64,000 nucleotides of DNA, taken from positions 22,382,001 to 22,446,000 of the forward strand of contig CM114271.1 in the NCBI GenBank assembly GCA_050084515.1, given 5' to 3'. The notes under the pieces were generated by a model. That model did not search any database. It was not told where the DNA came from and saw only the letters and a program-made list of their open reading frames with translations. Shown here piece by piece: positions 241 through 36,978 of this stretch. Position numbers and translations under genes: made by a program. The first letter of the stretch is position 1. Every line of letters begins with the position of its first letter. The DNA comes from Blasia pusilla (lineage: Eukaryota).

Positions 241-275
241 TGAACAAACTCAATTCGTTCAAAAAGTGCACTTAC

Positions 276-5054: not shown

Positions 5055-5660
5055 CGTGCAACCCATCCCCCTCGTCAGACGTGCAACCCGTCAGAGATCG
5101 ACGAGTTGCACCCTTCCCTCATCTCGGGGTAACAAGGCGAGGTACCCGGGCAACCTGTTGCAGACCGACGGATTGCTTGCTTCCCTTGTCCGAGGGTGAC
5201 AAAGCATGGTCCCGAGGCAACCCGTCGACCTCTGACAGCTTACAAGGTCTACCATGGGTTGGATACTTCCCACCATACGGCGAAATTGCGGCACGGTCTC
5301 CGACAAACTCGTATGTCCCTCACGGTTTGCACGGTTCACTGGACAAGAGAAATCGACGCGAGATCCCCCTGCAACTCGGTTACCTCAAAAAGGGAAAGCG
5401 AGGTGAGGTACCTTTTCAGTCCGTTGCAGTCCCCATCGGGTTTTCGTAGGAAATCCATGCGAGGTCTCGTGGATCCCGACTCCAATCAAACAGGTCAGAC
5501 AGGCACGGGTACCGACTGACAACTTCGTTCAACCCAAAGGACTCCAACGCGTTACAAGTTGCACTCCGACTCTAACAGAAGATGGTACTCCGTGGATTTG
5601 CAACCCACATGTCTGAGTCCTAAAATTTGCAACCCGTCGGATTTCGACAGGTTGCAACAA
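5055..5660. repeat. Degenerate palindrome cluster between the divergent genes
   Basis: About 8-10 degenerate copies, e.g. TGCAACCCGTCGGATTTCGACAGGTTGCA at ~5628-5656. Confidence 0.85.
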
Positions 5661-6294
5661 GATTGAATCCATTGCGTCAGACAATCTCACCTACCAAACA
5701 ATATCTTGTCAATCAAATTCTGTCATGAGAATAACGGTCACTATTCACTATTAATTAAACATTCTCATTCTTATTCTTATTCTTATTCTTATTCTCATTC
5801 TTCATCAGGTGGAATCATCAAGGAATGGATAATTATGTAAAACTCACTTGTGGTAGTCATCTAGTGGCCCTTCCTCAATCAGAAATAATTTGACCGCAAG
5901 CTGGTGAGTCTTACATACCAGTTGAGGAAAATTTCCTCTCACTATGATTTCTTCTCCAAATTGGAACAAAATTTGTTTCCAAGGATTTTAGGATGGACGG
6001 TATGGAAGACATTGTAGGTGAGACAGTCGAGCCACTGATAACAGACTGTAAAGTATGGAATCTCCTACCTCTCAAAATGGGTCAATATAGAGTTTATGGC
6101 TTGCCTCTGAATTCCACTGTTTCCCAAGTAGACGGACCGGAATTTCCTAGTGCATTGAGCTCTACGTTTGCCACTCCCAACTCTGTAGATCCAACATGAA
6201 CTCCAACTTCACACGTTCGTAACAATGTTGTACTTCGAAAGACATTCCTTATGTCGTCAACCTCAATGGATCTGTCGGACACCAACCAGGTCCT

Positions 6295-9200
6295 GTGTCT
6301 GCCTACTCGTTCCTCTTGCCAATATTAGGCAATAGTTTGATGTCGTCTCTGCCCTTTAAAATGTTCAAGCACATTCTTTTCGACGAGCTACCGCCCAAGT
6401 ACGATGGTAATTGCATTTTTGAGTTGCCTCCACTTGCTGGTCCTGCTCAAAAGAAAGATGGAGGACGCTTGAAGGGTATGGACAGAAAGTCTGATTGTCA
6501 TCGATGCTACAAGCTTCAACGGACTAGTGCTTCAATTCCAAATGGTCCTTGGATTGTTTCTCGCCGCCAATGTGTTGGAGCCTTGGAGTGTAGAAGTCCA
6601 GGCTGCCCGTATCTAGAGCGCAATGGGGGAGTCAATACGTCGCAATTTCCCCCAAAGAATGCAAAAACTCCATATGATGTCGGTGGGACCATACCTCCGG
6701 GAGGCCATCGATGTCCTCATTGTCAAGCATCCCCTTTCTGCGTTAGAGCGTGTCCTGCATACATATTTTTCATTGTGCACAACTTCAATTCTACGTCCGA
6801 GTACACCAGGATGGCAGTTCATATTGGCTCCCACATTCATCATGTAACCGTTGCAATTCAAAGACACATCAAAGAGGATGTGGCAAAGACAGTGGCCGAG
6901 GTATATAGACACTCTCCGGGATCAAAGCCCGGAGTGATGAAGTTAACAACAGCATCACAAATTTGTGAACAACTGCTTGGAATCCCTGGGCAGGGCGAGA
7001 TCATGGTTGGTGAGGAGAAAGAACTCTGGGAAAATCTCGCATTTCTCGCTGACCTTGAATGCTTCCAGAACTTACTGAGTCAAATATGGATACTTAATGG
7101 AAAGACGGAAAAAATGGATGCCATTTCCAGAGTCAAGGCCAACTCCAGATTTCCCTTTATTCAAAGATGGCAGTTCACGGGCCAGGGAGGCGAAGGATCC
7201 ACGGCTTATGTCTTCAAAAGTCAACTACAGGGCCGTTGAGTGGCCTCGATCTTATAGATCGAATGAGGGAAGGGAAAGATCTCTACGGCACCTGGATAAG
7301 CTTTGATATTTGCTACAGAGTGTCAACCATGGGTGCTCACGTTTACGACCATGTGGAGAAGGGACTCAAAACTTTATTTGTCTGTGAGGTAAAAGCAGAA
7401 GATGTTGGTAGTTTGAAGAAGTGTGGGTTACTCTTATTGGAGGTGGTGAAGGAAAACAAAAGGCCACCTCTGGAAATTTCATGGCGGATAATGCACAACC
7501 TGGATGGATTGCTATCAGGGAAGTGTTTTGGGGTGGAGAGGTTCAACCAGAGAGGGAAAGGTCGGATGCTTTCCATTGGCAACAGTCTCTGACCCGGTAC
7601 ACCAAATTTTGCATCAAGGAGAATAAGAGAACGGAGCATATCACTCTACTCCAATGCTGCAAGGACCGAAAAACCTTGAAAGAGGCCATGGAGTGCCAAG
7701 AAGAACTTCATGGGTGATGGAGGAAGCATGCAATTGAGGGGAAGTACAAAGAGTTGTGCTCTTGGCTCAGTTGGTGGACAGTTGATGAATGAGACAATGG
7801 GGAAACTTCATGCGGCAGGTGAGTTCAGTATTTCGTCCTTTCGAGCTCATGCTCAGAATTGTTTGAAAAGTTGCAGCTCAAGTTGAGAAGCGTGGGAACT
7901 ATAGGGATTTCAAATCGCAGAAACCAAGCAACCCGTCGGAAACCGATAGGTTTCATCAAGAAAGTATGTGCAACCCGTCAGAACTTGACTGATTGCATGA
8001 GTGTCACACCCGTCGGAGCGCGACAGGATGCATGAGGAATGTTTGTGCAACCCGTCGGATCCCGACGGGTTGCAAGTTGCATGTATACAAGGCCTGCAAA
8101 TAGTTTGACCCGGATGGGTTGCAAGACGCAAGGCTGCGAGTTAACTCGATCTACAACCCGTCGGATTCTGACAAGTTGCGTCTGTCTGCAACCTATCAGA
8201 TTCGACTAGTTGCGTCCGTCTCTGACTCCTCACATTCATACAGTTGCGGCTGTCTTCAACTCCTCGCATCCAGACACGTTGCATGAGTGCAAGTTAACTG
8301 GAACCCGTCGAATTCTAACAAGTTGCATCGAATTCTAACAAGTTGCAAAGATTCGTGTATGGACACTTCTTGCAAGCCAACAGAATCCGACAGGTTGCAC
8401 AAGGATTTTTAAGACCGGACCAGCCTGCTTCTCACAACCTGTCCGATTCCGACGGGTTGCAGTAGCAGGTTCTTGTGTGCTGGGTTGCAGTAAGAGGTTC
8501 CTGGGACATTCCATGGATGTCTCTGACTTGCAACCCGTTTTAAGTCGGAGGCAGGAAAATCCATGTGCGACCCATCGGATTCCGATGACTTGCACTTGGA
8601 TCTTCCAGCCCGGAGTGGCCAAAGTTACTTGCAACTCGTCTGAATCCGACACGTTGCACTAGGTGGTTCCTGGGTATTGCAACACGTCGAAAACCGATGG
8701 GTTGCACAATCATTCATGGGATGTCTCCGACTTGCAACCTGTCTGGTTCCAACAGGTTGCTTTTTTCTTCTCTCATAGAGCTATTTTCATTCCCTTCTCA
8801 CATTGCCGTCGTTGTAGGGGTTGAACATTCATGAAAATGCCCTCTGCCCCAACACAAGTGGAGCAGAAAGTGTTCATTCCTCCTGAAGGTTGTCACAGGC
8901 ATGCCAAAGAATGTCACTTGTGAAGGCATGCCAACAAGACCAAGCAAGAGCAATGCTACACTGTGTAGCATCCCATATCTTCCTCACAAAAAGCATAACT
9001 AAAGGAAAGGGGCCTTTGATTTACGAGCTCTATGTCAAGGCGGCTGTGAGATCTAGTGATGAGAAACTCTATGTGGAAGCCTTCAATTGGTGCGTAGCAG
9101 GAACTCCCCTCGAGCAAGATGTCCATATTGGTGGGGATATTCGTGGGCGTGTTTCAAGACGTCCCATACAGATGGTGGTAGAGCAATCCGAGCGAGACTC

Positions 9201-10721: not shown

Positions 10722-11864
10722 CGCCTCCAAGTTTTGAGACACCCAGATGAGAAGAGAAAGTGTGTTTGCTTCATTGAGCATTGTATAGGTTAAAGCAAGC
10801 CCAAATGGGTATGGAATCAACGAATAGAGACATTCTTTCAAGAGAGGGGTCTCATCAAGAGTCCGTCAGAAGCAAATTTTTATGTCTTTTGCGAAGATGG
10901 GATGTATATGTTGATAGTCCTTTATGTGGATGATCTAATCATCACAAGAGACCACGGTAAGAAAAGAGAGGAAATGAAGGAAGTGTTGAAATCTGAGTTT
11001 TAAATATCAGATCTAGATCTTTTGCAATGCTCTGTAGGTCTGGAGGTTTGGCAACAGTCTAATTCTATTTTTCTCTCTCACCAAAAGTATGTTAGAGAAA
11101 TCTTGAAAGCATTCGAGATGATCGAGTGTAAGGTAGTGGTCTCGCCAATGGATGCAGAGTTAAACCTCTCAATGGAGGATGTTTCATCATTGGTAGATGA
11201 AAAGTTGTAAAGATATCTTGTGGGTAGTTTGATATTTTTGTGCAACAGAAGATCAGATATTAGCTTTGCTGTAGGAGTGTTGAGTAGGTTCTCAACTAAG
11301 CCTCGGGAGAATCATTGGAAGGCAAGGATGCGTGTTTTGAAGTAAATCAAAGTCACTTTCGAGTACGGCATCACCTACACAGCAGGGACAAAAATGACAG
11401 ACTTTTGTGACTCGGATTGGGCAGCAAACTTAGATTCTCGGAGATGTGTTTCCAGTTAATGTTTCTTGGTAGGATCAGATGTGATATCATGGGTCAGCTA
11501 GAAGCAACATACAATGGCTCTTTCTTCTACCGAGGCAGAGTACAAGGTGGCTTGTTATGCTTCTTGTGAAGCAGTATGGTTTAGATGGATATTGGAGGAC
11601 ATAGAAGAAGCACCAGAAAGCGCTACTGTAATGTGGTTTGACAATCAGAGTTGCATTGCAATAGCACATAATCCTGTGTTTCATACTCGTACAAAGCACA
11701 TAGAGATTCAATATCATTTTTTGTGTGAGTTGATCGAGAGAGAGGTTTTGAATTTAGTCTATTGTCCAAAAAAGGATATTCGTGCAGACCTCTTCACCAA
11801 ATCCTTGAGCCGATATCAACTTCAACGACATTTGAAGGGTCTTGGTATCGGTCCAAGACAGTAG
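10722..11864 (+). pseudogene. Ty1/copia reverse transcriptase-RNase H remnant
   Basis: Motifs ALYRLKQA, LYVDDLII, FCDSDWA, ALSSTEAEY, DNQSCIAIAHNPVFHTRTKHIE and ADLFTKSL, with many stops. A purine tract AAGGAGGA followed by TG at 11894 suggests the PPT and start of a 3' LTR. Confidence 0.95.
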
Positions 11865-12650
11865 TCCACATGAGAGTGGATATTCAAGGAGGATGTGGGA
11901 TTCTCAAAATCCACTTCTCTTAGCACCATTAATCTGATCGGCCCCCTCATTTGATGGTTCTGACTTAGACGTCGAGGCAATCATAGCAATATGACGTAGG
12001 TGGTTTATGGAGTAGTGTTAATAGGATTATCTAATCCCATATTGCATTAGGGTACCCCGTACTCTGATGCAATATAGGGTTAGATAATCCTAGTAACGCA
12101 GAATGTTAGTAACTATGCAAAAAAATCTATAAATAGAAATGAAGAAAAATAGGTAGAAAATCCTAGTTTCCCATATCTCTAATTTGGGATCTAATTTTTT
12201 AAGTCTTTCAGAAGGAACACAAGCATAACAAATACAACCAAAGACTTTCAAGCAGGACAAATTAGGTTCATTTCTTATATATGAAGACTTTGAATAGACT
12301 CTAATGATGAACTCTTGATGTTGGAGTTTGGTTGATTAAGAAGACTGTACACGCTAGAACTTTTGCCCAATATATATACACTTTAGGCATGTTCTTCTAA
12401 TTCAGTATAGTAGGTATCGCCTCAACGATATGTCAATTCTTCTACTCAACCACTCTATTTTGTTGTGAAGTGTAACAAAAAGTCACCTCTTGTTGGATGT
12501 CATTTTAATATAAGGAGTCATCTAACTTTGTTGGAAGGTACTCTCTTCCTCCATCCCTACGCAATTTGAGATTGTGTTATCTAGTATTCTTTTGTACAGT
12601 AATTCTAAATGTCTGGACATTGAGAATACTTCTACTTTGGCTTTGAGAAA

Positions 12651-16993: not shown

Positions 16994-18267
16994 TGTCGTA
17001 TAGTAAAATCAGCCAGTGTGTAAACTCCTTTCTCATTAAGTGTTAGATAGAGTTTTATTAGTATTAAGTAAATTAGTTTAGGAAAAGGAAATTCTCATGT
17101 TTAAACCTCTTTATGGTGCCTCTTTTATGCGGGCCCAAATTTAGGAAAAGAGGTAATAAAAAAAATGACTTTATAAAAGTAAAGTAGTGCGGTTGGTGCT
17201 CTAATGAAAAACAAAAGTAATCTTGGTTGGTGGCTAGGGTAGTTGGGGTAATTTGGAAAATATCAAATGGGTAAAAGAGGATATTTTGGAAGAGATAAGA
17301 GGAAATCTATTTGTGTCAAAATATGATTGGCTAAGCCTTGAGAGGAAGTCATGTTGCACAAAATAAAATTAGCCCTATTTCGTACTCATGTGGATCCCTT
17401 GTGAGTATATAAATAAAAAGGATCTTCAAGGGTTCATGACCTTCTACTTCACATCTTGAGTCTCTCGTGTCACTCTTGAGTGTATGACTTTGGGATTGCT
17501 TGCTCTTCCAATGAGAGTGGATTACCCCTCTTGGGAGAATAACTTGACATTGGTGTATTCTTCAAGAGTTTTCTAGAGTATGGTATGTGCGGAGATGAGA
17601 AACTTGTCACCTTAGATGAGTTTAGTCATACTAGAAATAGAAAATGGTTTGGCTTGTTATTTTCCCAATGAGAGTGGATTACCCCTCTTGGGAGAGCAAC
17701 TCCACCAAATCCCATTTTAGAGGAGAGTAGAAGATGTTTGTCAAATATGGATAGGGGTGGAGTACGAGTTATGCCAGATTTTCCTTTCCTTAACCCGTAC
17801 CACGTCAAGATTCTCTTTGTAGATAAGCATTGGTTCACTCGCTATCTAGTTTATCATTTTGGGAACGCGTTCATAAACCAAGTCATGCAATCTCCAACTC
17901 CGGTGATTCTTCCTATAGTTACATACAGAAGGACATGGGATTACACTTTGTATATCCTTACATAGCAATCCATGGACGTCAATAGGTCTGGTCGAGTAGG
18001 GTTTAATACTATTTGTGTTATTTTCCTTGTGTATGACATAAAATAGTTTACAGGGATTTCATAGTTAGGAATTTCGAGGTCCGATGTTACAAAGAAGTGA
18101 TCGCCTTGACACTTCCATTTGTGATACCTATCGTTAGAAAATGGAGAGTATACATAATAATTTTGTATTGAAAAAGGAGAACTACTTAGAGAGTTCACCT
18201 TGCATTGACCATGTTTGATGTAGCTAAAAGACCCACCTTTACTCGAAGAAAGGCTCTCGACACGATA
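16994..18267 (+). mobile_element. Solo LTR, family B
   Basis: Termini TGTCGT...ACGATA with 4-bp TSD GCGT (16990-16993 and 18268-18271). Homologous to the LTRs of 46358-54851. Confidence 0.95.
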
Positions 18268-18332: not shown

Positions 18333-20183
18333 TGTTCCATCCCGTTGTCGTATAGTAAAATCAGCCAGTGTGTAAACTCCTTCCTCGTTAAGTGTTAGAT
18401 AACATTTTATTAGTATTAAGTAAATTAGCTTAGGAAAAGGAAATCCTCATGTTTAAACCTCTTTACGGTGCCTCTTTTATGCGGGCCCAACTTTAGAAAA
18501 AGAGATAATAAATAAAAGATGACTTTATAAAAGTAAAGTAGTTACTTTAATGAAAAGAAAAAATAGTCTTGGTTGGTGGCTAGGTTAGTTGGGGCAATTT
18601 GGAAAATATCAAGTGGGTAAAAGAGGATATTTTGGAAGAGATAAGAGGAAATCTACTTGTGTCAAAATGTGATTGGCTAAGCCTTGAGAGGAAGCCATGT
18701 GGCACAAGATAAGATAAGCTCTACTTCGTACTCTTGTGGATCCCTTGTGAGTATATAAAGAGGAGGGACCTTCAAGGGTTTATCACCTTCTATTCCACAT
18801 CTTGAGTCTCTCGTGTCTCTCTTGAGTGTATGGTTTTGGGATTGCTTGCTCTTCCAATGAGAGTGGATCACCCCTCTTGGAAGAGTAACTTGATCGTGGT
18901 CTATTCTTCGAGAGGTTTCTAGAGTGTGGTGTGTGTGTGTGGAGATGAGAGGTTTGTCACCTTAGAGGAGTTTAGTCATACTAAAATAGTGAATGTTTTG
19001 GCTTGTTACTTCCCCAATGAGAGTGGATTACCCCTCTTGGGAGAATAATTCCGCCAAAATCCATTCTTGAGGAGAGAAAAGAATGTCTGTCAAGCATGGA
19101 TAGGGGTGGAGCACGAGTTGTGCCCAACTTTCCTTTCCTCAATCCATACCATGTCAAGGTACTCTTTGTAGATAGACAGTGGTTCACTCGATATTTAGTT
19201 TATCACTTTGGGGAAGCGTTCATGAACCAGGTCATGCAATCTCCAACTTCGGTGATTCTTCCTATCGTCACATATGGAAGGACATGGGATTGTACTTTGT
19301 ATGTCCTTATATAGCGACCCATGGAAGTCAATAGGCTTGCTCAAGTAGGGTTTAACACTAGTTGTGCTATCTTCCTCGTGTACAAGCGTAAAATAGTTTA
19401 TAGGGATTTTATAGTTAGGAATTTCGGGGTCCGATGTTACGAAGAAGTGATCGCCTCGGCACTTCCATTTGTGATACATGTCGTGAGAGAATGGAGAGTG
19501 TACATCATAGTTTTGTATTGAAAAAGGAGAACTTCTTAGAGAGTTCACCTTGCATCGACCGCATCTATCGCAGCTAGAAGGTCCGCCCTTGCTCGGAGAA
19601 AGGCTCTCGACACGACACCGTTGGCGCTCAAAGTGGGGTTTGGGTTCCAAGAATCCTTGGAGACACTCCCCCTCACTAGTACTTCTAGGGATCCTCGCCC
19701 TCCCCCTAACTTTAGGGAAAGACAGTCGGGCCTCTCAATTTGGCCTTAAACCGAACTCCTCTTATAGTCATTTTTGGCCAATATCTCAAGCTCTGATGAA
19801 GTGTTTTCTAAGATCTTTGGTGCGTTGTGATCTTCTTAAAATAATATTTCCAACGCCATCTTACTTGACCCAAATACATCTTGGGACAAAAATTTATGGT
19901 CCAAAACACAATCAAAATCCCCAAACGGTAGTCGCGTTCTAAATTTGGTTCTCACCTCTTTGGCAACCAACCTTCCTAGACTCAATTCATCTAAAGTCTT
20001 GGTTCACATTTGGTCCAAGTTTCTTGATCGCGACCATAAATGCATGAAACGCACAAACTCTCTTGCGCATTTCGTCTCTTGGACTCTTCCAAGAGACATC
20101 TCCAAAGCGCAATCATTGTACCGTGAGCACACGAAACTTCTTGGCGTCTATTTGGTGTTGATTTGGTTATGAGAGTCACGACA
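18333..20183. mobile_element. Partial LTR, family C, interrupted by a family B solo LTR
   Basis: 19622-20183 aligns by eye with ~36423-36978 and ends in GTCACGACA. Confidence 0.85.
18346..19617 (+). mobile_element. Solo LTR, family B
   Basis: Termini TGTCGT...ACGACA with 4-bp TSD CCGT (18342-18345 and 19618-19621). Confidence 0.95.
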
Positions 20184-22149
20184 GCCATGGAATTGGCGAC
20201 CATGGGAGTTGGACGAGCAGAGGTGTTCTGGATGGCCACCACGCTGTGTGAGCGTGGAGAGGTGACTGCCTCTCTTTTAGAGGTGATTGAGAAGAAGGTG
20301 GACTTGTCTTACGAGCAAGGGCTCGGGACATCCCCAACTTAGTCATGGCATGCTACGGCGGAAAAGTTTGTAGATATGCCAACTTGGCCATCGATAGAGT
20401 GAGCCATGATCACATCTGGTATGGTGTTGTTGGATAATTGGGAGTATTTTGCTTGGTTAGTCCCACAAGGATGATGTATCACTCGCAACGCATCCTACTT
20501 GCATTGATTTGGGAGCGTAGCCCTTCATGTTAAAGAAGGCGGCGTATTTGGAATTGGGGTTATGGAAAGGCAACATTGAGTATTGTCCCTTTTAGATACA
20601 AACCTCTATTAGGGGCAAATCACTCACATAGTGTATGACTCGACATGAGTTGGTGGTTAGACTCTAGCTAGAGCATGAGTCGGATCGATTGTGTGATTGT
20701 GCGCACGCGGGCGATTACGACACCAAAAGAGTATGATGTGTTGGTAGGGAGTACTGTGTTGTACCCCCTTAGTTTCATCCTATATTTGTGGGAGGAGACA
20801 ATTTTTGATCGATTAGCGTGCCAATCAAGTGATGAACGGATGAGCCATTGAATGGTGTAGTTTGCAAGATGTAGTGGTGGTCGACCACGTGAGGATACAA
20901 TGACCATGTTGGCAACATTCATGGGTGGTGTTAGCTAACCAAAAGAGTTGTTGGAGAGGTCATACATGCAGAGGAAATTCCCATTGTGGATAGTCCCGCG
21001 GAGAGACATGCTAGAGTGGATCTCTCTTCCCATGGTGCAGAGACCAATTTACCATTGTTGGGTACAAGCATTGAGTTGCATGGAGTACATGCGAGCTTGT
21101 GAGGCAAGCATGGAGCCGTGCCTGTTTCTTCGAGCAGAGAGAGACAATGCAAGTGACAATCGTGCTCGAGGATTGGAGACTTCATATTTTAGGGTACCAT
21201 ACATGTTGTGTGGCAGCGTTTGGAGCAAGCTATGAGAGTTTTAGATCTTTTCGGAGGGATCAACATGACGGATAACTACAGTGTTGTAATGTTGCGGGAA
21301 TGATGGCACCAATGGTGCTAGATGTGTATAGGATAGAAGATCATGTTGGGTAGATATGTGTGTGCTGTCTGGAGTTAGCGGGACCCAATTTCCAGCTAGG
21401 GAGGCAGTTGTGGGGTCTTAGTGTATATGTGTGAGTTTGTTTAATTTATGGATGGATTGATCCATGTGTTGGGAAAATCAATGGTGTGTGGTATGTATAT
21501 ATGATCAGCGATGTGGGTTATGTAGCAATGTGTATGTGTACGACACTTGTCACATCTTAGTTAGACGTAGGTAGAGTTCTATCGCGTCAATGACATAGAG
21601 GGTTAACAAGCTATTCGGGTGTAGCTTTGTTGGTAGAGATGTTGGATGAGGTTGGTGATAGATCTATTGCATTTGTGGCGATTTTCCTTGTTTGGTCTTA
21701 GTTAGTTAGGTGACCCGTTGATCGAGTCAACGGTCACCTGATAACCTCTGCACGCAGGTTACGGTTGGGATGGCCATTTTTGGGGGAAGAGCCTTTGGCT
21801 CTTCCCAAGGGTGTAAGAGAGGGAGAGATGGCTTTCCCAAGCTGTCTTTCTCATGTTGAGCCTTAGGAGCACCTCTCTTGCATGTGTGTGTATGAACTAG
21901 GGTGCTAGTGTCTAGATTCCCTCATAGCAAAGGCTGGATGTGGCTCCATATGCCAATGTAGATTCAGGAGTGGAGTTTTAAGCCGGGTGAGTTGTTTTTA
22001 CTCTGATTTTATTGTGGGTTCTCGGTGTATATGTGTGAGTTTGTTTCATTTATGGATGGATTGACATGCGTGTTGGGAAGATCGGTGTTGTATGGTGAGT
22101 AGATGTGACCAGCGATGTGGGTTGTGTAGCGATATGTATGCGCACGACA
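20184..22149 (+). mobile_element. Diverged, internally deleted relative of family A (A') with a B1-ct-A2-B2 3' end
   Basis: Decayed protease-region motifs (VLLDN, YDVLVG) and DNMT motif I (VLDLFGGI at ~21238). Direct repeats 21408-21545 and 22012-22149 (138 bp each, ending ACGACA) flank 21548-22011, which starts TGTCAC. Confidence 0.85.
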
Positions 22150-23526
22150 TCTTGGTATGAACCACCAAAGTCAAAACCTAGACTAGCTAGTTGCGAGACT
22201 AAGAAGGACAACGGAACCAATTGTGGGACTAATGTTAGGCAAAACACGTAGGTATCTTGTGATTGGCCTTATATGAGAAAGGGGCGTAGCTACTCACGAG
22301 GACAATGGCAACGCAAGCAAGGTTTGAGAGCGTGGAGCCAAGTGCTAAGTCAAGGGTGAGAAGCATAGATCATATGAGTAGTCAAGATGGGCAGGACAAT
22401 GGGTTAACATCGTGGACTTGTACTTTATCTCGCGCAAGACCTACACCGGTGACCGGTCGCCTAGTCGCGCATCTCAGGCTGGCGGCGTGAGGGACATTTA
22501 TGCCGTTCTCGCCATTCCGGGGCACTGTTTGAGCCGAAGGCAGATTGGCCCCATCTTGGCCCTCCGCGCGCTCCATATGTTTGGTTAGGGCATTGACCCG
22601 ACGCTCAAGGCGGCCATAACTTATGTAGTTGTCAACGGTCCGAACAATATAAGATGCCTTGGGGAAATGGATCATATTCACGGGAGACCCATCAGGTTCA
22701 CGGTGGAACCTAATTCCGTTTGATATACCTATACCTTAAACCTTTTTTTGTCAGGCTTTTTTTGTGAATTTGTTTTTTTCCAAAAAAAATTTCAATTTTT
22801 TCCTATCATTTTTTTTGTTTGACAGTCCGGGGCCTGTCTGGAAATCCCAGGGGCCGTGTCAGCCAGTCCCCAGTCCCTGGCCCTTCGGACCCACAAAGTA
22901 TCTTGTCTTCTTTGGGCCGTTCGTCAAGAGCTGTGCATCTCTAGCCCTTTGAAAAACCGGGTTTCGTTCAAAAAGTTGAGATTAACTCAATTTAGCCTTT
23001 ATTTTGTACTTCCTTTTATAGGTGCTACTTTTCTTCATCATGTTACTATTGGGCAAATAGCCTTAGTTGGTTTTTTATTTTATTATTAAGCCCATGCTTG
23101 TCAAAAAATTAGAAACTAGATTAAGGTGAAGAAGTTGACCTGGGGCGTAGCCAAAATAAATAAATAAATTTTCATCCTCACCCTACGGGCCTACCCCCCT
23201 CCAGCTATCCCCATTTTCTCGTCATTTTTTGGCTGGTGTGCCTTCCACAACCTATCCAAAAATCTAGATTGGTAATAAAAAAGTATTAAGTGTGTTTTTA
23301 CTCATCATTTTTTACCTCTTATCGGTAGTTTTTAGCAGGTGTTTTTGGTCTTTTTCTTGGTTCAAGGGGAGTTTTTGTAGTCACAATTACGTGTTTTTCA
23401 TTATCTTCTATTTTATCTTGTATTGCATTTTACGAAGTCGCATTGTGTGCCAGTGCTTGCTATATAAAGATTGCACCGGAACACGTGAATTACAATTCTT
23501 TTTTAAGTAATAAAAGCAGTTTCCGG

Positions 23527-23599
23527 GCCGGCGTAGCTAAGATGGTAGAGCATTCCCACGGTAAGGGAAAGGCCTTCGGTTCAAGTCTGGTCGAAGGCT
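23527..23599 (+). tRNA. trnT: Mitochondrial-type tRNA-Thr(GGU), probably non-functional NUMT copy
   Basis: 73-nt cloverleaf. Anticodon arm TTCCC-AC-GGT-AA-GGGAA (GGT at 23560-23562) and T-loop GGTTCAAGT. Two mismatches in the acceptor stem. Confidence 0.85.
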
Positions 23600-24433
23600 C
23601 AAACTTCTCTATACGCGGGGGACATCTATGATTTGCAAAAGCTACGCACTTGTCGCTCTCAAAACAAGTTGTTTTTTTTTTATAAAAAAGCACTCGCTTT
23701 ACTTGTGTGAGGTGAACTTATTTTACCGGCATCCTGGATTGAGCTTGGATTGGACGCATTTGATGCGGTGAGCCGAGAAAATATCAGATTAATCCATGAC
23801 TTGAGTTTATTTTCGTTGTTTTCAACGTCTACTTTTATGCATAAACTTTAGTAAAAATGCAGCCACTTTTTAGCCTTGCGGAGGCAAGGTTCATTTACTA
23901 CATTTTTTATTTTTCCTGTTGTGGGGGGGCGTGAGACTATAGGGAGAGGTGCATAGCACTTTGGGGGTACAAAGGGTCCGAAGGTACGTAAGCACTTTCT
24001 AGACTCACAAAGTTATAGTTGAATGGGACGCCAAAATAGCGAAGTCGGAAAGTAAGGTCGTCCGACGTGCTTACGAAAAGGCCCGGGATTCTTACAATAA
24101 GGCCGGGAAGGGCTACATCAGGCTCGTAGGGTCCGTATAGATAAATGATTGAGGGGGAGCACCTTAGACAACAAGAAAATCCGTTGTTTCCCGATGCGCT
24201 TAAAGGCGCAACTCCTAGCGTACCTTCGATTTACGAAGAGTACGGTCGCTTAAGTTTACTTCTTCGGCAGTTAGTTGATTTTATAGAAGTCTTGGAATGG
24301 CTTTACAGTTGGAAAATCTATTTTGTCACGAAACGGAAAGCTTTTATGCATTTTGCTTACTCCACCGTAGATATTTATGCTATGGTTTGAATGGTAAACA
24401 AAAACAATGAATAAAAAATATGAATTATTAGAT

Positions 24434-24737
24434 ATGGCTAAAACTAAACAAATCCAGAATTTTACTTTGAATTTTGGACTTCAAGACTCTGCTTCTCATG
24501 GTGTTTTACGATTAGTAGTGGAAATGAATGGAGAAGTGGTAGAATGCGCGAAACCGCATATTGGATTACTCCATAGAGGAGAGGCACATAAAAATTACTT
24601 GAGTATAAAACTTATCTTCAAGCTTTACCTTATTTTGATCGTTTAGATAATGTTTCTATGATGGCCCAAGAACATGCTTATTCTTTAACTGTAGAGAGAC
24701 TTTGTAATTGTGAGGTACCTTACGAGCTCAGTATATG
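24434..24737 (+). pseudogene. nad7: NADH dehydrogenase subunit 7, 5' fragment
   Basis: [15 protein letters not shown]...[15 protein letters not shown]...PHIGLLHR, then after a 5-bp duplication (AGAGG twice) [37 protein letters not shown]. Confidence 0.95.
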
Positions 24738-24858
24738 CAGCCCTTGACATATGAATAAGTGTGCTTGTCCTTAACGGGATGATACGAAAATTCATATAGG
24801 TGTTGCATGGCTGTCGTTAGCTCGTGTCTTGAGACGTTGGGTTAAGTCCTGTAACGAG
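24738..24858 (+). rRNA. rrn18: Fragment of bacterial-type (mitochondrial) SSU rRNA, pseudogenic
   Basis: CCCTTGACAT...AGGTGTTGCATGGCTGTCGTTAGCTCGTGTC...GTTGGGTTAAGTCC..TAACGAG matches universally conserved 16S-like segments. Confidence 0.9.
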
Positions 24859-25831
24859 TTTAGCAATTCGCAATCAATAAAAGTTTAGCTCTCGTTGAAG
24901 TTTTCTTGCTATTTTCGTTGAAAGAAAATGGAAAACAAAGAAATTTTTTTATTTTATGTTTGTCAACCATCGTAGATGGTTGATCAAATTGTTATCGGCT
25001 GTCGAATGCCACCTGATTTTCATATTTAGGCTATTTATTACAAATAAGGATGATTGGAACGTTTTTATCTTTGAGAAAAAAACTGACCTATACTTTTGAT
25101 TTAGGCTTGTACCTCTGCCCACGAGACTAGCCAGACACAAAACGCAAAGGGCAATGAGACAAGCATAAGACGCCAAACGAGGAGTTAAGATGGGCGCTAG
25201 CCATATGAGACATGGAATGCGGATCTAAGCTCCAAGATGCATTTGGGGAGTTGACGGTTGCATAATCTGCAAGAAGCATCCGCCAAGCTATATTCATAGT
25301 TAACTAGTCAAACGGTGGTCAAGGCTCGCGAAGCATGTTTCGATTAAGGGAAAAAATCAAAGGTTCAAGGGGGAAAATTAGGGAAGATGGGGTTATTATG
25401 GAAAACCCAGCAGTACCTTAGGAGGGACACTCTCCCTCTTCATGCGATCAAGTCATTGAACCAAGAACTAATCATAATGCGTGTTTGGTAGTGTTTCAAG
25501 TTTGAGCTAAGGGGCCTATCTTGAGGAATTCGGGACATCGGTTAATTCCTCAAGATAGGTCCCTTGAAAATTTGATTTGTGCTCCAATTGAAGTTAGCGA
25601 CTTGGGGAGATGATGGCTTGATGAAGAGGCTTCCTAGGGAGACGATACGCACTTGGGGAGATTCGACCCGGTTAGCGCTTGGTGGCTTCTCGGCTACCTA
25701 CGGAAGTTGCAACCAATTGAGTCTTCGGGACTCAATCTTAGTCTTCCGCTTGTAAAACTCAAGGTCGGGAGTGCTTTGGAGTGAAACTAGATGGAGGGAT
25801 TCTAAGACGCTCATTAGAATAGTGGGTTTGG

Positions 25832-25834
<3 letters not shown>

Positions 25835-25871
<37 letters not shown>
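25835..25871. repeat. (GA)n microsatellite
   Basis: About 18 consecutive GA units. Confidence 0.95.
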
Positions 25872-25878
<7 letters not shown>

Positions 25879-28184
25879 TTGTGTAAGAAAGTTGAATAAA
25901 TTTTATTCATTAGAGAAAATTTGAAATTTTCAATGTTCAAACATCATGAGTGAATATCTATATTATTATTGGAGAGTATCTTTTTATTTTGCTTTCACTT
26001 TTCCTTTTGACATGTCGTTTTTAATCAATAAAATCACTCGAATTCAATTATATATTTAGAATGAATCATTCAAAACTATACATAGCTCATACCACCAACT
26101 AGTGATATCTTATGATTAGTAAGAATCATATATGTTACATAATGATGTGTATACACACTCCTTGCTTTAAGGACACGTGGAAATGAGTTAGTAGGGACAA
26201 CAAGAGAACTTTTTGGTCAGGCCTCCGCAAAAGCAAATAAAAAGAAGTTATGATGGTTGTCCGCAAACACCCACCGCTTACTTCATCAGCTAAAACTTAC
26301 CCCTCCCAAAAAGGGTTACTTGAGTAGCCTCTTAGGGCACGCGGGCTACACACCACAGGCATATCATCCGCTACCATCGTAGATAGCGCGAGCCACGCAT
26401 CCATGTATGCATGGATGGCGCTTGCCATGGCCATGACGGACCACGGGCTGTGCGCGGCGCCGGAGCTGGGTCCCGAGGCTCGCGCTAATTTGGCCTCTCG
26501 TCGTGGGCACGGGGGAGGACTGAGGACTGTAGTGAGTGAGCGCTTCGTCGCCCGAGAGGAGTTCGTGGGAAGTGTGGAGAGAGAGAGAGTGAGGGCTTTG
26601 GTCGTGTACGTATACAGTAGAGAGAGAGAGGAGAGGAGAGGAGAGGAGAGGGTTCCGCCTGTCTCGGACAGCATTCTTCCTTCCTTGCTTTATTCAGTCG
26701 TTCATTCGCCTTCTTCAGCTTCAGTGGGACCTCATTGCCGCGCCGCGTCAATTCCACCCCACCTCCGCTTCCTCTGGTGAACTCTCTCATGCCCCTCTTC
26801 GGTCGCGCTTGAGAATAAATCATCTCTCTCTCTCTCTCGCCTTCTTGTGCTCTTGCGTGTTAGTGCTGGGATGGATGGAATGAATGGGAGAACTCAGTCG
26901 ATTTGTGGACTGTGTGTGTATCTGTGGGTGTGTGCGCGTGTGGAAGAATGAGCAGAAGACGGGCGGGGGTGGGGAGGGGAGGAGTGAGGCGGGGGCGCTC
27001 AAAATTCGTGGGCAGGGGGCAATGGGTTGGGTTGGTGAGTTCCGGGTGGTGCTGGGATCTGTGGAGTGGAATGCGCAGAAGCGCAGGCTTAGTGAGCTGA
27101 ATGGTGCCATGCAAGACTCGGCTCCGGCTCGTGCGAGCGAGGCGGACTAAGTTGCGCTGATTTCTTGACTTATTTCATTTTCTTTGAACCCCTGCCATTG
27201 CGGGCACCAGTACTTCTCCACCGCCGCTGGTTAAGTGGTTGTGAATCCCGAGGAAACGAATGTCTAGTTTTCTTGATGGTGGCAAGCGTAAAGGAAGGCA
27301 GCTGCTCTGAACGCAGATTCGCGTGGGAGGTAATTGGGAATCGAAGTGTGATCATTGAGTGCTCCACACCGAGTCTATGGTGTAGTTGTAGGCGTCTCTG
27401 TGACAAATGGCCATACGATGAAGTCAGTCGACGCTCGTGTGAAATGCTGATGCTGATTCCAACCTTCCCAGAAGTTGTGAAGAGAAATTTCATGTGGCTC
27501 AGATTATTGTGGTCAGCTCTCCCCTCCTACCCTGCGGGTAATTAACCTCGCTGCCAGCCAGGACCAGATGCAGCCTTCTGCCTTGCTGTTAGAGAAGATT
27601 GTGTGGGGCTCGTACCCGAGTCTGGAGAGATAGCCCCTCAATGTGTTATCCCCACCCGTCAAGAACTAACATGAAGGGAATGGACACACGTAGCAGCTAC
27701 AAGATGTGGACGGCTGATTTAAGACGTCTACATTCCAGAGATAACTTCTATCGTTCTTCTAGAACGGTTCGAGTGGGTCTTTTCTCCGAGCCCGGACAGC
27801 CCGGACAGCTCTTCAGTTTTTTATCCACTACCTCAAAAAGGGAGTGGACAAACTTTGCTACAAGACGCGGACGACTCTTGGATTGCGCTTTAGATGTCTG
27901 ACGGTTGACAGAGAGATTCTCTGCATTGAAAGTTTTCTCTTTCTGGTCAAACCAGTCTCCTCCCTTGGCTTACTACTCCCCTGGCAACCTTTCTAATCCA
28001 CTGAAGGTGTGCAAGAATATGAAGGGCAGAATTGTGCACATGTTTGTTCTCATGGTGATCCCATGAACGGTTTCGGGCTGTACAGTAATTTTACGTCTAG
28101 TTCTGGTTGCGCCTGAGTACGACTTGTGTGGGCATTTATGATGTGCAATTTTTTGGATCTTGATCTATCAGGGAGAAATTGAGA

Positions 28185-30152
28185 ATGTCCGCAGCAGGGA
28201 AGGGAACTGGTGCGGCGCCCAAAGGTGGCAATGACAAGGGCAAAGATGACACGATAGCGAAGGTCACAGGAGTGGTGATCGCCTCAGGAATTGCGTGGAG
28301 CTTGTACAAGTCCTTCCGCACCAGGAGTTCGGCAGAGAAGCCTGTGGAAATAGAGCAGATTGTTAGTGACCTCCTGAACGAGCACAGCACTGTGATGATA
28401 ATGAATTTGCAAATGCTTGGAATTGTCTGGATTTTTTGCATTTTTTGTGTCAGTGGTATATTTTCCTGTTTGTTTCTGGTGCAATCCGAGACACTAAACA
28501 GTCGCTTCCAACCATGATCAGACCATGATTGTGCTTGTGTGTATAAGTGCATGCTATTGTTACATTTTGGAAATGGGAGCACCTGGATATTTTCTCATGT
28601 GTTTCTGGTGCTAGTGAGGACTCTCCGAATATTTTTTGTCCAACCAACCTGAGACCATGATAGTACTGGTGTTTGGACGTCCATGCTCTGGGTTCATGCT
28701 GGAAATTGGAGGACGAATGAATGTGGCAGGATGCTGCAGGTGTTTCTGTGGAGGTGATGGTGGAAAAAGAAACAAACTAGTGTAATTACCAGAATGTGGA
28801 GTCGCTATATTCACTCCTCTATCTGGTTGTTTTTTCAGGAAAAGTCAGAGGACGTGACAGAAGTAATTGAGGAGGTTCTCGATGAAATGAAGGATAGGAA
28901 CCAGAGTTTCTTTGAGAAAGTTTCCAAGAGCAAGAAATCAAAGTCCAGACTTGACAAAGAATATGCCATCTGTAAGGGTGATACACTCTGGGGTATTTCA
29001 AGAAGATATGGGGTAAGTCTTGTAACTACCTCTGGCAGTAATCACATCAGTAGACCTAGATGAATGATTTCAGACTCATGGCTGCTGGGCCCAGCCCCTT
29101 TCTTGTAGATGCTCCCTCTGTTTTGTTGTTGCTTAAAGCAGATAATTGGTGCCCCTGTATCTCTAAACTGGTTGCCAGTCAAGTAGACCCTGATAATATA
29201 ATTATCAACAGCAGGTAGAAGAGAACCGTTGCATGAAAGACTCCCATTCTCTGAAAAAGGTCTGTAGAATCTCACTTGGATGTCACAGCATTCAACCAGA
29301 CCAGGAGATGTTCACAACCTAGACTCAGATTCCTGCTCGTTTTGGAATGAAGCTTGAAGACAAGGTTTAGCCAAGCTGAGAGAGGCCTATTCGAACCTTT
29401 TCAGCAGCTTGTGAAGTTTTTGGTCGATATTAGGCCAGAGGTTATCAAATCCTGAGGACACAATAAAAATTAAGAAACTACGAAGGAGGTACGTTTTAGA
29501 AATGCTCCATAATAAGCTTAATCCAGGGCCTTCTTAGAACAGCTGGAGTGGTAGGGAATATGGGGTCTTTCTGGATGTCTATCCGTTCAACAGGTTTGAT
29601 TACTTGTCCAGAATCCCAGCAGTGCACCTATAGGCATTGTACATACGGGCGCACTCAAATCATGTACGGAAAGGTCGGGCATCAGTCTTCCTGTCATCAA
29701 GTTCTTGGGGGTACCCTTGGCTGAAATTTTACTGCAAGCTCCATTCTTGGAGACCAGGAGTATTGACTAGGATTAGGTCCAGTCGAGTTGATAATGAACT
29801 TTTCTCAGGCCCTCAAGTAAAGCATGCAGCTAAGAGAGGTAATTAGGTGAATCATTTCCATCAGTAGCTGTCCCATCAGCCAGCAACAACAACCTCGTTG
29901 AGAGACCATCGATAAATGACAAAGTCTGCAAACACTAGCCTGGAAACTTCTGCTCTGGTGGCCTGTACTGGTCTTTATTGACACAGCCTTTGTTGACTTA
30001 GTCAGAGTTTACGGCCAAAGATATTAAAGATGGGATGTCTCATTTGAAGTTGCGTCTTCTTCCAGGTACCCATTGATGACTTGAAAGCATTGAATGGCAT
30101 TGGAGATGCTGACTACATCATCGCAGGGGACACTCTGGTTATCTCCAAATGA
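28185..30152 (+). CDS. Small LysM-domain protein with an N-terminal hydrophobic helix (145 aa; coding exons 28185-28361, 28839-29012, 30066-30152)
   Basis: GT-AG phase-0 introns give an intact ORF: MSAAGKG...IAKVTGVVIASGIAWSLYKSF...YAICKGDTLWGISRRYG|VPIDDLKALNGIGDADYIIAGDTLVISK*. The last ~45 aa form a canonical LysM domain. An acceptor at 28171 implies a 5' UTR intron. Confidence 0.92.
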
Positions 30153-32681: not shown

Positions 32682-35600
32682 GGCCCATCCTATCTAATTA
32701 CATATATCAAGAATCTTGTCACCACAATCTCATAGGAGGAACATTGTGCCCCATCTCTTCAACAAGTCTGGAATTTGAAAGGAGAATTAGTTATTATATT
32801 CGCGTGAAAGACACCCGGATAAGTTAGATAGTGAGAAAAACAACAACAAGTGAATGTAGAGGCCGTAACTATGACATGATGAGTTCATAGTTGAATTTTT
32901 TGATTATTAAACAAATAGGAAGAAATATTAAAATGAAAAGGGATATTGGAAAGTACATATAACACAAAAAGGGATGCATGTTTGTTTTAGTTCATGAGAA
33001 GTAATTGATAAGGCGTTTGTGCAGTACCTTTGGAAAAAAAAGGACTAAAGATGAGAAAATTTTGGGATTATGAGAAGAAAACGCTCGTAAAAAGAAGATA
33101 AAGGCTGATTTAAAAAATATGATGACCGCAAAACTAAAGAGAAGAACAAGGGTTTCATCACACTTATGTGTGATGGTCTATATTTAATCTAATACGTTGT
33201 ATGTTCAATCTACCATGGGAAATGCTAATAATGCACGTATATTTGAATCTCTCTTCATTTTTAAATTCTTGGATAATTTCTTCCATCACTCCACTTAATA
33301 GAAGTAGCACCATAAATGCTAGAGTACTAGCTCAAACATGTATTTCCTTCGACCATCATACCAAGATATACGTAATTTTCCATATTGTTGGTATGTTTTC
33401 ATGACGATCCTTACAAATCTTTGTTATTTACCTTGACCAAAACAAGGATCAACATGAAATAAGGGTAGTTAATATCTTGGGAGCATGGGGGAGTTTCATA
33501 AAGGTTGGATATGCTCTGAGACATTTGTACGAAGTAGCAATTTAGATCGAAGTAAATTCTTAGATTGCTAATTGACCTTTAGATAATGGTGATAAAACAT
33601 GGCTATCCATTATCGGCTCTTTAGAACTATTAAAAGTGTAAGAGATTATCCTAGTAAAGTCTAGTTATCCACTTGCAAGTCCACTTGTAATCCTCCAAAA
33701 AACACCCCCAAAAATGTAGGATATTCTAAGAAATCCTCATTATTTTTTACTAGAGGGCTTCAAGTGCCTAGAAAGAATACCCTAAAGAATTTACAAGAAT
33801 GCTAATAAATGTAGATATCCACTAGTAACCCTCTAAGAACAACATTTCCAAGAGTGAAAGATAATTATTATAAGATTACTTACATACTACGTGCCTCTTC
33901 AAAAAATAGTTTTAAGAGTACAAGATAACCCTAAAAATAATTGCTATAGAATAAAAAAAAACTCAAAAAAGTAACTTAATCTTAAGAAAACATAGTCATC
34001 AATCAATAGTCATATAGACATGGTATTCACATGACGGTAAGATAATCCTAATAAAAAAGAAACTCCTCCAAAATATCTTGTAAAAGAAACTCCTCCAAAA
34101 TTTAACATAATCATAAGAAAAAAATATACATACTAGAGACCCTCCTAAATGTGTAAGATAATTTTAATAAAGCGTAGCTTTCCACTTGCAAGAAATACTC
34201 TAAAACTTCTTTAATTGGATAACTAAAAAAAAACATATATAGCCTTGAATAACTCTCAACATCTAACATCTTCCATGATCATTTAAGGATGCTCATGAAG
34301 CACAAGAACTCACTTATACTCATCTTCAACTTGACTTGAATTAATACTTGATGTGAGCAAATGTAACAATGTAAGGATGTTGTAGACTATGACCTTTACT
34401 TCTTCTAGATTTACCGCAAAGAACTCCCAAACTTTAGATTTGCAAGAAAAATACTTAGGTTGAGTCCCAAAGACTCGACTGGTTGGGCGTTCTGTGGGTA
34501 GCTGAGAAACCGCTAAGTGCTAATTGGGCCTAGTCTCCCCTGTTGTGCGCATATACATCGCTACACAACATACATTGCTGTCACCAAACACACACAAAAA
34601 CACGCACGATCCCATGCTAAATTCATGGCATCCAAACAATGAGACAAGAAGTACCAAAATATCTCTAATAAAACAAGATCCAATCTCTCTCACAACACCA
34701 TAGTTCTCACATGTCTCTCTCAAAGTCAAACCAAACCCACTCTCCTAATGAGAGCCTTGGGTTACACTCACAAGGCAAAGGACCATAGCTCCGCTGCCTC
34801 GTGCCAAGAGGTTCAACAAAGAGAGAATGAGCTCTCAAGCTCTCTCTCCTTGAGGTATACCCCTCCCCTCCCCTAAGCTCTCTCCATGGTAAACTATGCT
34901 CCCAAGTCACCTCCTTGGCTCTTGACCTCATGTAGGAGGTCAAGGGCCATTTACCAAAAATAGAATTTTGCCCATTTACTCAAAATGATACTTACCTAAA
35001 ATAGTAAGTTCCTCAATATGGCTCCAAATGAGCTGAAATGAAGGGGAAACCTGCTCTCTCGGGTTTCCGGGGCCTCATCAGGTCATCCTTGATCTCCTGA
35101 GCATGTTCTCCACTACTCGAGAAGGTGATCTACTAGATCTCATTGATCTATTCTAAAAGACGTGACAACTGTCATGCGCGTACACATTGCTACACAAGAT
35201 ACATCGTTGTCACCAAACACGCACTTCTTGTCTCGTTGTTTGGATGCCATGAGTTAGCATGGCATCCAAAAAATGAGACAAGAATTACCAAAATATCTCA
35301 AATCGCCCCCCTAGATGGTGGTTAGGTCCCTCTAACTCTAGATAGCCATCTGTCCCTACCTACCATGACATACATCTCTCGGACACTACGAGCAAGAAGG
35401 CCGGGTTCTCATGTGGCCCCATCCTTAGTCGCCTTCTTGTCATCCATGTCACAGAAACAAGTTGGAATGTAGAACTACCTACTATATGTACATATGGGAC
35501 ACATCCATCGTCCCTGAGGAACCCTAGTGAGAAGTGGCGTCAAGCATGCCATATGCCATCCTCTCGAACATCCATCACAAACTAGCATAGTGGCTGCATC

Positions 35601-35975: not shown

Positions 35976-36978
35976 TGTCGCGCCCCTACTCTCCTTGAAC
36001 GTCAATCTTTAGTGTTGCGGAAGCATACGTTCAGTAGGTCACGAACTCATCGCTGATCTGCACCCAAACACGCACTCTCGTTAGTCGGGTCTGGGCCAAC
36101 CAGCATTCCAACCCACCGAGTCCTCAACTCGGCGTCTCATCAAGCTCAACCTTCGTTAGTTCCTAGTTTCCAAAACATGGCAAGTCCTTCAAGACTTGGA
36201 ACAGACTTCCTGGTTAGTCCAGGGATCTGAAACGGCCCTTGCGCGCCTAGCGATCCCAACTGTTCAACGGTCCTCGGGTGAGTTCCGAACCGAGACCCAA
36301 GTAATTGAGTCGCGGGGTGGAATCCAAGAGGGATGTCTAAAATCGCCTCAATAGACTTGGTGCAGGTTTTCCAACCCAACCCCCAAACTCGTGTTCCGTT
36401 CCATGCCCTTGGGCCGCCCCGCGGCGCCCAAAGTGGGGTTTGGGTTCCAAGCACTCTCGGAGACCTTCCCCCTTACTAGTACTTCTGGGGTTCTCCAATA
36501 ACTCCTCCCCTTTGGGAAAAGAGGGTCGGGCCCTTCATTGTGGCCCTCAACCCGACTCCACTTACAGTCATTTTTGGGTTTTATCTCGGCCGTTGCTTAT
36601 GCGTTTGCAGCGATCTTTGGTGCGTTTGGACCGGCTCTCCATAAGCTTTCCAACGCACCCTTATTTGTTCCAAATACATCTAGGTGCTAAAATTTATGGC
36701 CATAAATACAGTCGGAAACTCTCAAACGCTAGTGGCGTTCCAAATCGAGATCTTTCCTTTGGCAACCCACTTCCTAGACTCGACTTCTTTCAAGTCTCAT
36801 TCCGCATTTGGTCCAGGTTTCTCAGTTGCGACCATAACATCTGAAACGCGACTCCTTGCTCGCATCTCGTCTCTTGTCTCCTCTTTGAGACAACTCCAAC
36901 GCGTAAACCATCTTAGCGTGAGCTCGCTAATGTTCCGATGTTCCGCTTGGCACTTGTTTGGTCATGAGGGTCGCGACA
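35976..36978. mobile_element. Solo LTR, family C (1003 bp), inserted in the integrase of copy 2
   Basis: Termini TGTCGCG...CGCGACA with 5-bp TSD CACTC (35971-35975 and 36979-36983). Confidence 0.95.

Follow-up and report, generated by a model that had tools for sequence, protein, structure and literature searches.

KnitGypsy-Dnmt3 of the green alga Klebsormidium nitens combines gypsy domains with DIRS-like repeats in the order A-coding-B-A-B, as stated in the legend of Fig. 4c of de Mendoza et al. (2018, PMC5890265); the available excerpts of that paper give neither the junction anatomy of the element (spacer, PPT, PBS, target duplications) nor a mechanism for it. A 2026 preprint (10.64898/2026.05.21.726589) names "streptophytes (Gypsy-DNMT3)", in passing only in the portion available, and beyond the figure legend in PMC5890265 we found no further descriptions in the literature of gypsy-type elements with DIRS-type repeats. 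The repeat order itself is familiar from PAT and Ngaro, which are built as A1-internal-B1-A2-B2 with an internal B1-A2 joint that copies the joined ends (PMC7192593, in the part accessible), and TOC1 of Chlamydomonas has been called a DIRS element (PMC9940879). These DIRS-order elements encode a tyrosine recombinase, in contrast to the lineage described below, which has a DDE integrase, TG...CA ends, and duplications of 4–5 bp. To our knowledge, DIRS-order elements (PAT, Ngaro, and TOC1) make no target duplication. How a DDE integrase serves a DIRS-type repeat architecture is a puzzle that has gone unexplained so far. A further point of comparison is provided by the Tcn1 and Tf1/sushi elements of mosses, for which self-priming has been predicted (Neumann et al., PMC6317226). 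According to the sections of that paper at hand, the PBS beside U5 in Tf1/sushi and plant Tcn1 elements pairs with the transcript start instead of a tRNA, a sequence signature that recurs in the elements analyzed here; however, Tf1/sushi and Tcn1 have ordinary identical LTRs, unlike our lineage.

We analyzed a 64,000-nucleotide stretch of Blasia pusilla DNA (contig CM114271.1, positions 22,382,001 to 22,446,000; hereafter the window). Self-comparison, together with a Pfam search of 269 ORFs defined from stop to stop (minimum length 60 aa in the 9–24 kb region and 75 aa elsewhere in the window), reveals a nest of retrotransposons. The focal element within this nest consists of the following parts.

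20185–21262, + strand: internal remnant, comprising the ORF region upstream of the DNMT and DNMT motif I (tblastn, DNA alignment, and translations)
21263–21395, + strand: 3' UTR remnant that includes a conserved GGAGTTAG.GGGACC block (alignment with the regions preceding the purine tract in family A copies 1, 2, and 3 and in contigs L001 and L002)
21396–21407, + strand: purine tract (polypurine tract, PPT), ctagggaggcag / CTAGGGAGGCAG, read from the sequence and directly abutting B1
21408–21545, + strand: B1, 138 nt, ending in ACGACA
21546–21547, + strand: 2-nt spacer CT, between the CA that ends B and the TG that starts A
21548–22011, + strand: A2, 464 nt, TGTCAC...TTTTA, the sole A copy of the focal subfamily in the window
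22012–22149, + strand: B2, 138 nt, ending in ACGACA, the right end of the focal element

The positions and letters that the initial annotation assigned to the purine tract, B1, the CT spacer, A2, and B2 match the sequence exactly, and its description of both B copies as 138 bp long and ending in ACGACA is likewise borne out. B1 and B2 are 83.6% identical across 140 aligned columns (E 1.6e-32) and appear in our repeat search as family D16 at 83%; an unrelated repeat, Z1, follows directly after B2. A tail common to the B copies of diverged subfamilies had also been claimed, and a degenerate 25-nt pattern of this tail matches all six B copies of the window and nothing else, with 0 matches expected from 100 shuffles. 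A search for the B-nn-A junction itself, which had been recommended as a check, is less informative: ACGACANNTGTCAC with at most two mismatches has eight matches against 4.25 expected, and only two of the eight (21540 on the + strand and 35162 on the - strand) are true B-nn-A junctions, so the short pattern alone is unspecific. A junction-like ACGACA-NG-TATCAC in the LTR of a neighboring element, X, was set aside; it represents a single homologous site present in four copies and lies within chance expectation.

Upstream of its terminus the focal element is heavily damaged. The region 20130–21300 is collinear at the protein level with 56541–57676 of family A copy 2 and also with copy 3 (tblastn). 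Motif I of the DNMT is retained, as had been proposed: translation of 21193–21300 places RVLDLFGGI at 21235–21261, and this motif aligns with GIRVLDLFGGIS of family A copy 3 and with LVELFAGIG of the contig L001. It is all that is left of pol in the focal element, and no Pfam match is left in the DNMT fragment. Motif I (~21262) is joined directly to the final ~130 nt of the 3' UTR before the purine tract, through an internal deletion of ~3.6 kb that removed the rest of the DNMT, the RT, RNase H, integrase, and PHD finger. Its 5' portion is missing as well: at 20184/20185 the element is truncated by another unit, Y', which ends there. The suggestion that B1 sits beside the 3' end of pol thus fails for the focal copy, which lacks everything between motif I and a point ~130 nt upstream of the purine tract. 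No A1 of the focal subfamily was detected in the window by blastn (word size 7) or by tblastn with the 5' region of copy 2; blastn at the same word size found no second copy of A2 in the window, and we therefore regard the A1 of this element as missing. Given the 5' cut and the internal deletion, what survives of the focal element is the 3' end of a truncated, dead copy that belongs to a diverged subfamily. It is highly probable, in our judgment, that this stretch is the terminus of an old member of a Ty3/gypsy lineage with split direct repeats in the order A1-internal-B1-nn-A2-B2 and, as part of the same assessment, that this lineage encodes protease, DNMT, RT, RNase H, DDE integrase, and PHD finger, in that order.

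Other elements of the window belong to family A, which is present in three copies whose domains are a C5 DNA methylase (PF00145, matched in copies 1, 2, and 3), an RT-type RNase H, an H2C2 plus rve integrase, and a PHD finger. These copies and their neighbors are located as follows.

12652 to B1 at 18330, + strand: family A copy 1, which stops at the end of B1, without A2-B2
44040–61591, + strand: family A copy 2, with A1 at 44040–44602 and B1 at 61464–61591, where it terminates
44603–44618, + strand: self-type PBS of copy 2, complementary to 44425–44440
61453–61463, + strand: purine tract of copy 2
46356–54854: young element X, nested in copy 2
34541–35314, - strand: terminus of family A copy 3, with purine tract 35314–35304, B1 35303–35170, and spacer GT 35169–35168
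35167–34541, - strand: remainder of the copy 3 terminus, with A2 35167–34669 (TGTCAC...TTTTA) and B2 34668–34541
35976–36979: mini-Y, a 1004-bp unit with ends TGTCGCG...CGCGACA, a 5-bp duplication, and empty sites in copies 1 and 2

Copy 2 carries the DNMT, RNase H, integrase, and PHD finger; it comprises everything from A1 through B1 and is inserted inside A1 of copy 3. The purine tract of copies 2 and 3 is CTAGGGGGGCG. Element X is canonical, with LTR ends TGTCGT...ACGACA. Mini-Y consists of a left part, a PBS-like site, a purine tract, and a right part, without a terminal repeat. The termini observed are of two kinds: copy 1, copy 2, mini-Y, and Y' end at B, and the focal element, copy 3, and the contig L002 have the full form, the first two of these being 5'-damaged and L002 being a contig fragment. 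We considered repeat Z (22150–25900 compared with 62523–61875 and 34540–34395) as an empty site for copy 3 and rejected it; Z carries a purine tract and a B-tail remnant and is for that reason unusable as a clean empty site.

Relatives from elsewhere were sought with an integrase-region alignment against a collection of bacterial and archaeal genomes, in which six eukaryotic-looking contigs (L001 to L006) were found. The closest two, L001 and L002, share 64% amino acid identity with the window lineage and 87.5% DNA identity with each other. L001 encodes, in one frame, a protease, a DNMT (PF00145, 6.8e-12), an in-frame stop, and then RT, RNase H, integrase, and PHD finger; the 127 nt at its start are repeated at its end, and it contains B (6949–7054), GC, A, and then the 5' leader. 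The terminus of L002 reads CTAGGGGGGGCA, which is the purine tract of both contigs, followed by B1 (2311–2416), GC, A2 (2419–2778, TGTCAC...), and B2 (2779–2884). Its B1 and B2 are identical (106/106), as expected if one template makes both. In the available DNA of L003 to L006 (42–46% amino acid identity), no B1/B2 pair was found; two of these contigs have only ~1.1–1.2 kb past the integrase core.

The spacer is 2 nt long in all four junctions (CT, GT, GC, and GC, the two GC junctions not being independent), and in the three lineages represented by the focal element, copy 3, and L002/L001, A begins with TGTCAC and B ends with GACA. The A bodies of these lineages do not align; conservation across them is limited to TGTCAC, the length of the spacer, the purine tract together with the block upstream of it, and the two ends of B, start and tail. 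The initial annotation saw in such geometry a mechanism rather than a chance tandem insertion, and our results support that reading on the basis of its recurrence in three lineages with essentially unalignable A, the identity of B1 and B2 in L002, and the published related family. Other generalizations need amendment. The B-nn-A-B arrangement recurs, as anticipated, but the junction follows the purine tract and 3' UTR rather than pol directly; a second B does not always come after B1, as several copies lack A2-B2 and finish at B1, namely copy 1 and copy 2, the latter with a target duplication; and the ending of A in TTTTA holds for the focal element and copy 3 but not as a general rule, since A of L002 ends in CTCTC(C).

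In LTR elements, U3 starts after the purine tract and U5 stops at the PBS. B1 follows immediately on the purine tract in the focal element, copies 2 and 3, and L001/L002. No tRNA-type PBS is evident after A1 in family A or L001, and we therefore tested for self-complementarity. Directly after A1, copies 2 and 3 carry CAAAGAGAGAATGAG(A), which is perfectly complementary to a site within A; the complement is 16 nt long in copy 2, 15 nt in copy 3, and 13 nt in L001, and the complementary sites lie 178, 162, and 172 nt, respectively, before the end of A. For each of these three sequences, the observed length was reached in 0 of 2000 shuffles. Judged by sequence, this complementarity is a signature of self-primed reverse transcription and marks a candidate PBS. 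ARAGORN finds no tRNA in the window; the one Rfam tRNA match there is a degenerate Thr-like sequence, which we consider irrelevant. Given that the purine tract abuts B and the PBS-like site abuts A1, the repeat built by reverse transcription would be B-nn-A (604 nt in the focal element), and we infer that B1 is the start of its U3-like part. Neither for B nor for the B-nn-A junction did RNA folding show a consistent excess of stability (z = +1.0 for the focal element and -3.8 for copy 3). A hairpin is present in the first half of B in both subfamilies. By eye, and in few sequences, a GTGAC motif in the B tail shows 8–11 nt of complementarity to the spacer plus the start of A, an observation on which we do not rely.

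The ends at which these elements are inserted are placed differently from the ends of this putative reverse-transcription repeat. They are the TG at the start of A and the CA at the end of B, with target duplications of 4–5 bp (copy 2 and mini-Y). Copy 2 is flanked by TCTC as a 4-bp duplication (44036–44039 and 61592–61595), and A2 of copy 3 preserves the target in its undisturbed state, with the caution that this TCTC lies in a CT repeat in which slippage could mimic a duplication. The integrase ends appear, from their sequence, to lie not at the tips of the reverse-transcription repeat but to meet inside it across 2 nt. We found no tyrosine recombinase domain (PF00589) in the 269 ORFs of the window or in three ORFs of L001 (two long polyprotein ORFs and a 234-aa ORF joining across the contig ends), and therefore attribute insertion to the DDE integrase.

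These features place the lineage with respect to known classes. As in Ty3/gypsy elements, family A and L001 have the order RT, RNase H, integrase with an rve (DDE) core and H2C2, domains that are deleted in the focal copy, and copy 2 has TG...CA ends with a duplication within the 4–5 bp range (TCTC). The two identical LTRs of Ty3/gypsy elements are lacking; the 5' end is A only and the 3' end is B-nn-A-B. Split direct repeats are shared with DIRS elements and the tyrosine recombinase is not. With Gypsy-DNMT3, the lineage shares PF00145 in the polyprotein of the three family A copies and L001, the focal copy keeping motif I only, and the A-coding-B-A-B order, seen as B-nn-A-B at 21408–22149 and in copy 3 and L002 and as A1 without B in copy 2. 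The window element fits the Gypsy-DNMT3 type. With KnitGypsy-Dnmt3 in particular, as far as the excerpts of its description go, the window elements have in common a Dnmt3-type C5 methyltransferase within a gypsy Pol polyprotein and the A-coding-B-A-B order; they differ in their host and in being represented by two diverged subfamilies in the window. The window RNase H-integrase ORF is 43–51% identical in amino acid sequence to K. nitens proteins, one of which (P0031) has PF00145. Its best named matches are liverwort and Sphagnum proteins at 75–76%, and further matches include many green-algal PHD-integrase polyproteins; these matches make a bryophyte the probable host.

Retroviral integrase can cut the junction of a 2-LTR circle, at internal CA...TG, into usable ends; this is a side reaction, and 4 nt lie between CA and TG. 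The present lineage differs in having a 2-nt junction built into every repeat. We tentatively posit, with less than even confidence, a scheme of replication and insertion in which the integrase cuts this built-in mimic of a circle junction. Reverse transcription would handle B-nn-A as a long terminal repeat: plus-strand synthesis would start from the purine tract abutting B, and minus-strand synthesis from the self-priming site abutting the end of A1, with the RNA 5' end, 162–178 nt inside A, folding back as in Tf1. The predicted cDNA product would be [B-nn-A]-internal-[B-nn-A]. Each repeat would then contain both integrase ends internally, opposed with 2 nt between them, in the manner of the LTR-LTR junction of a 2-LTR circle. 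Cutting after each CA at CA-nn-TG would give two recessed CA-3'OH ends with 2-nt 5' overhangs, equivalent to the normal processed substrate, and the need for 2 nt in this cut would account for a spacer that is constant in length but free in sequence. A circle with two tandem repeats, cut at the junction on the PBS side, would yield A-internal-B-nn-A-B (as in the focal element, copy 3, and L002), in which the A2/B2 joint would represent the joined tips of the cDNA; a one-repeat circle, when cut, would yield A-internal-B (as in copy 2). Only A-internal-B-nn-A-B could found a lineage, because only that form keeps a 3' copy of R. It counts against the scheme that recombination between B1 and B2 is an equally good source of forms ending at B1. 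Among the ~7 termini available, we found neither the alternative permutation A-B-nn-A-internal-B nor solo A-B units.

Taken together, the identity of the element and cutting at the circle junction are the best explanation overall, to which we assign slightly less than an even chance. The same [B-nn-A]-internal-[B-nn-A] cDNA could also be inserted in linear form, the integrase removing long tips at the internal CA to leave A-internal-B. The evidence from the purine tract and PBS applies equally to this reading, and in the set observed, units ending at B (copy 1, copy 2, mini-Y, and Y') are roughly as frequent as full forms. However, trimming alone leaves a complete B2 directly after A2 in three lineages unexplained, so that B2 of the full forms would have to be added otherwise, for example by template switching at the end of A or by end-joining to a second molecule; moreover, A-internal-B copies, having no 3' copy of R, would not be expected to found families. 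We consider linear trimming unlikely. A true DIRS-type cycle, in which B1-nn-A2 only bridges and rebuilds the ends of incomplete cDNA into a circle that a recombinase inserts, seems to us improbable. The repeat geometry is that of PAT, Ngaro, and DIRS elements (PMC7192593 and PMC5890265, in the parts available), but the scanned ORFs of the window and L001 contain no PF00589, an intact H2C2 plus rve integrase is present, and the TG...CA ends with their short target duplications are the marks of a DDE integrase.

Two explanations remain. If A+B were the LTR of an ordinary element, B1 could have been duplicated upstream of the 3' LTR by aberrant reverse transcription or recombination and then inherited as a functionless passenger. 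A+B does have TG...CA ends, and the neighboring element X is canonical with similar ends, yet the 5' end of our elements is A only with a PBS-like site at once after it, the purine tract precedes B1 and not A2, and the arrangement with its 2-nt spacer is kept in three lineages whose A does not align, which leaves this origin very improbable. The crowded window, full of nested insertions, might invite the view that two elements were nested or inserted in tandem by chance in a transposon graveyard. We find this barely credible: the order and the spacer length recur in the unrelated contig L002, in which B1 equals B2, copy 3 repeats the pattern as well, and no match to the B-tail pattern is expected by chance.

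Gypsy domains with A-coding-B-A-B repeats were already known from KnitGypsy-Dnmt3; what is added here is the anatomy of the junction. This anatomy, which combines a purine tract abutting B, a putative self-priming site where A ends, a CA-nn-TG junction with a constant 2-nt spacer, and target duplications, leads to a concrete and testable model of replication. The split-repeat design persists across diverged subfamilies and hosts, and such elements will be missed or mis-called by LTR-finding programs built to look for two identical terminal repeats. Returning to cutting at the built-in junction, we put forward with considerable doubt the broader proposition that a lineage of DDE-integrase retrotransposons of green plants and algae inserts from circular or tandem-repeat cDNA via a built-in CA-nn-TG junction. 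If this is true, circle-junction integration, long discarded, would be the normal life cycle of this lineage, and the lineage would link LTR elements functionally to DIRS-type elements.

Repeat Z begins exactly where B2 of the truncated DNMT-carrying Ty3/gypsy 3' terminus (21396-22149, +) ends, and a second copy of it is located upstream of copy 3, the family A element on the minus strand.

22150-25900, no strand given: repeat Z
62523-61875, minus strand: repeat Z
34540-34395, minus strand: repeat Z
23527-23599, plus strand: tRNA-like sequence (Rfam RF00005, 35.4 bits)

Within Z, a purine tract and a remnant of the B tail (25632-25654) are followed by approximately 145 nt that are also found after B2 of copy 3, and then by a piece that resembles the 3' end of A and contains a (GA)n run. 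Repeat Z is probably either a relative that has decayed or a locus that has been duplicated. The tRNA-like sequence lies in a 2.7-kb insertion in Z and is Thr-like by its anticodon loop; ARAGORN called no tRNA at this position, and the sequence may be a pseudogene or part of a tRNA-derived SINE.

In B1 of copy 3, the B hairpin has undergone a local palindromic rearrangement (35225-35284). This explains why B2 of copy 3 resembles its own B1 less (75%) than it resembles B1 of copy 1 (90%) and of copy 2 (84%). The contig L001 (1-9285), which carries a related DNMT-containing element from another organism, has identical first and last 127 nt and thus represents a 9158-bp unit closing on itself, as expected if the assembler had collapsed A-internal-B-nn-A copies, where A and B are the split direct repeats and nn is the 2-nt spacer. 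Its one in-frame stop (3489-3491) lies between protease-DNMT and RT-RNase H-integrase-PHD. The contig is recorded under a cyanobacterial MAG and looks eukaryotic.

The window also contains a young canonical gypsy element (element X), other transposon sequences and a possible host-gene fragment.

46356-54854, minus strand: element X, with LTR pair, PBS and purine tract
16994-18267 and 18343-19621, plus strand: two older solo LTRs of element X
10794-11207, plus strand, and 12093-12335, minus strand: Ty1/copia fragments (RVT_2; retroviral SH3-like integrase domain)
28758-29060, plus strand: LysM domain fragment (Pfam, E 1.9e-05)

The LTRs of element X (each ~1275 bp, 99.4% identical) have TGTCGT...ACGACA ends, the PBS is TGG-type and preceded by AA, and the purine tract is GGAGGGGATGAA. 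Pfam matches include the H2C2 integrase zinc finger and DUF4100, and rve has no match in this element. The solo LTRs are placed in, and directly past, B1 of copy 1; the Ty1/copia fragments are directly upstream of this truncated copy. The target duplications (GCGT, CCGT and (A/G)CGT) agree with the NCGN preference reported for Phygy elements of Physcomitrella (PMC6317226).

The LysM fragment, the sole non-transposon Pfam match in the window, is perhaps a host-gene exon within the 26-33 kb stretch. ORFs of positions 1-9000 have no Pfam match. Within this region, a 424-nt segment (2406-2825) matches its reverse complement at 81%, and repeats of ~67 nt that form ACCCGTC...GACGGGT hairpins make up a small family (2601-2667, 7931-8074); both are possibly MITE-like.

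Copy 3 is also the host of an insertion, mini-Y, for which copies 1 and 2 show the empty site.

35976-36979, plus strand: mini-Y, 1004-bp unit with inverted ends and target duplication
19622-20184, plus strand: Y', partial copy of mini-Y (72% identity)

The inverted ends are 7 bp, the target duplication is 5 bp (CACTC) and terminal repeats are absent. Y' ends in CACGACA at 20184, adjoining the element to which the truncated terminus belongs. The left part of mini-Y is followed by a PBS-like, tRNA-Lys-like GGCGCCCAAAGTGGGG, a purine tract and the right part; mini-Y may be a non-autonomous element that shares the A-internal-B design.
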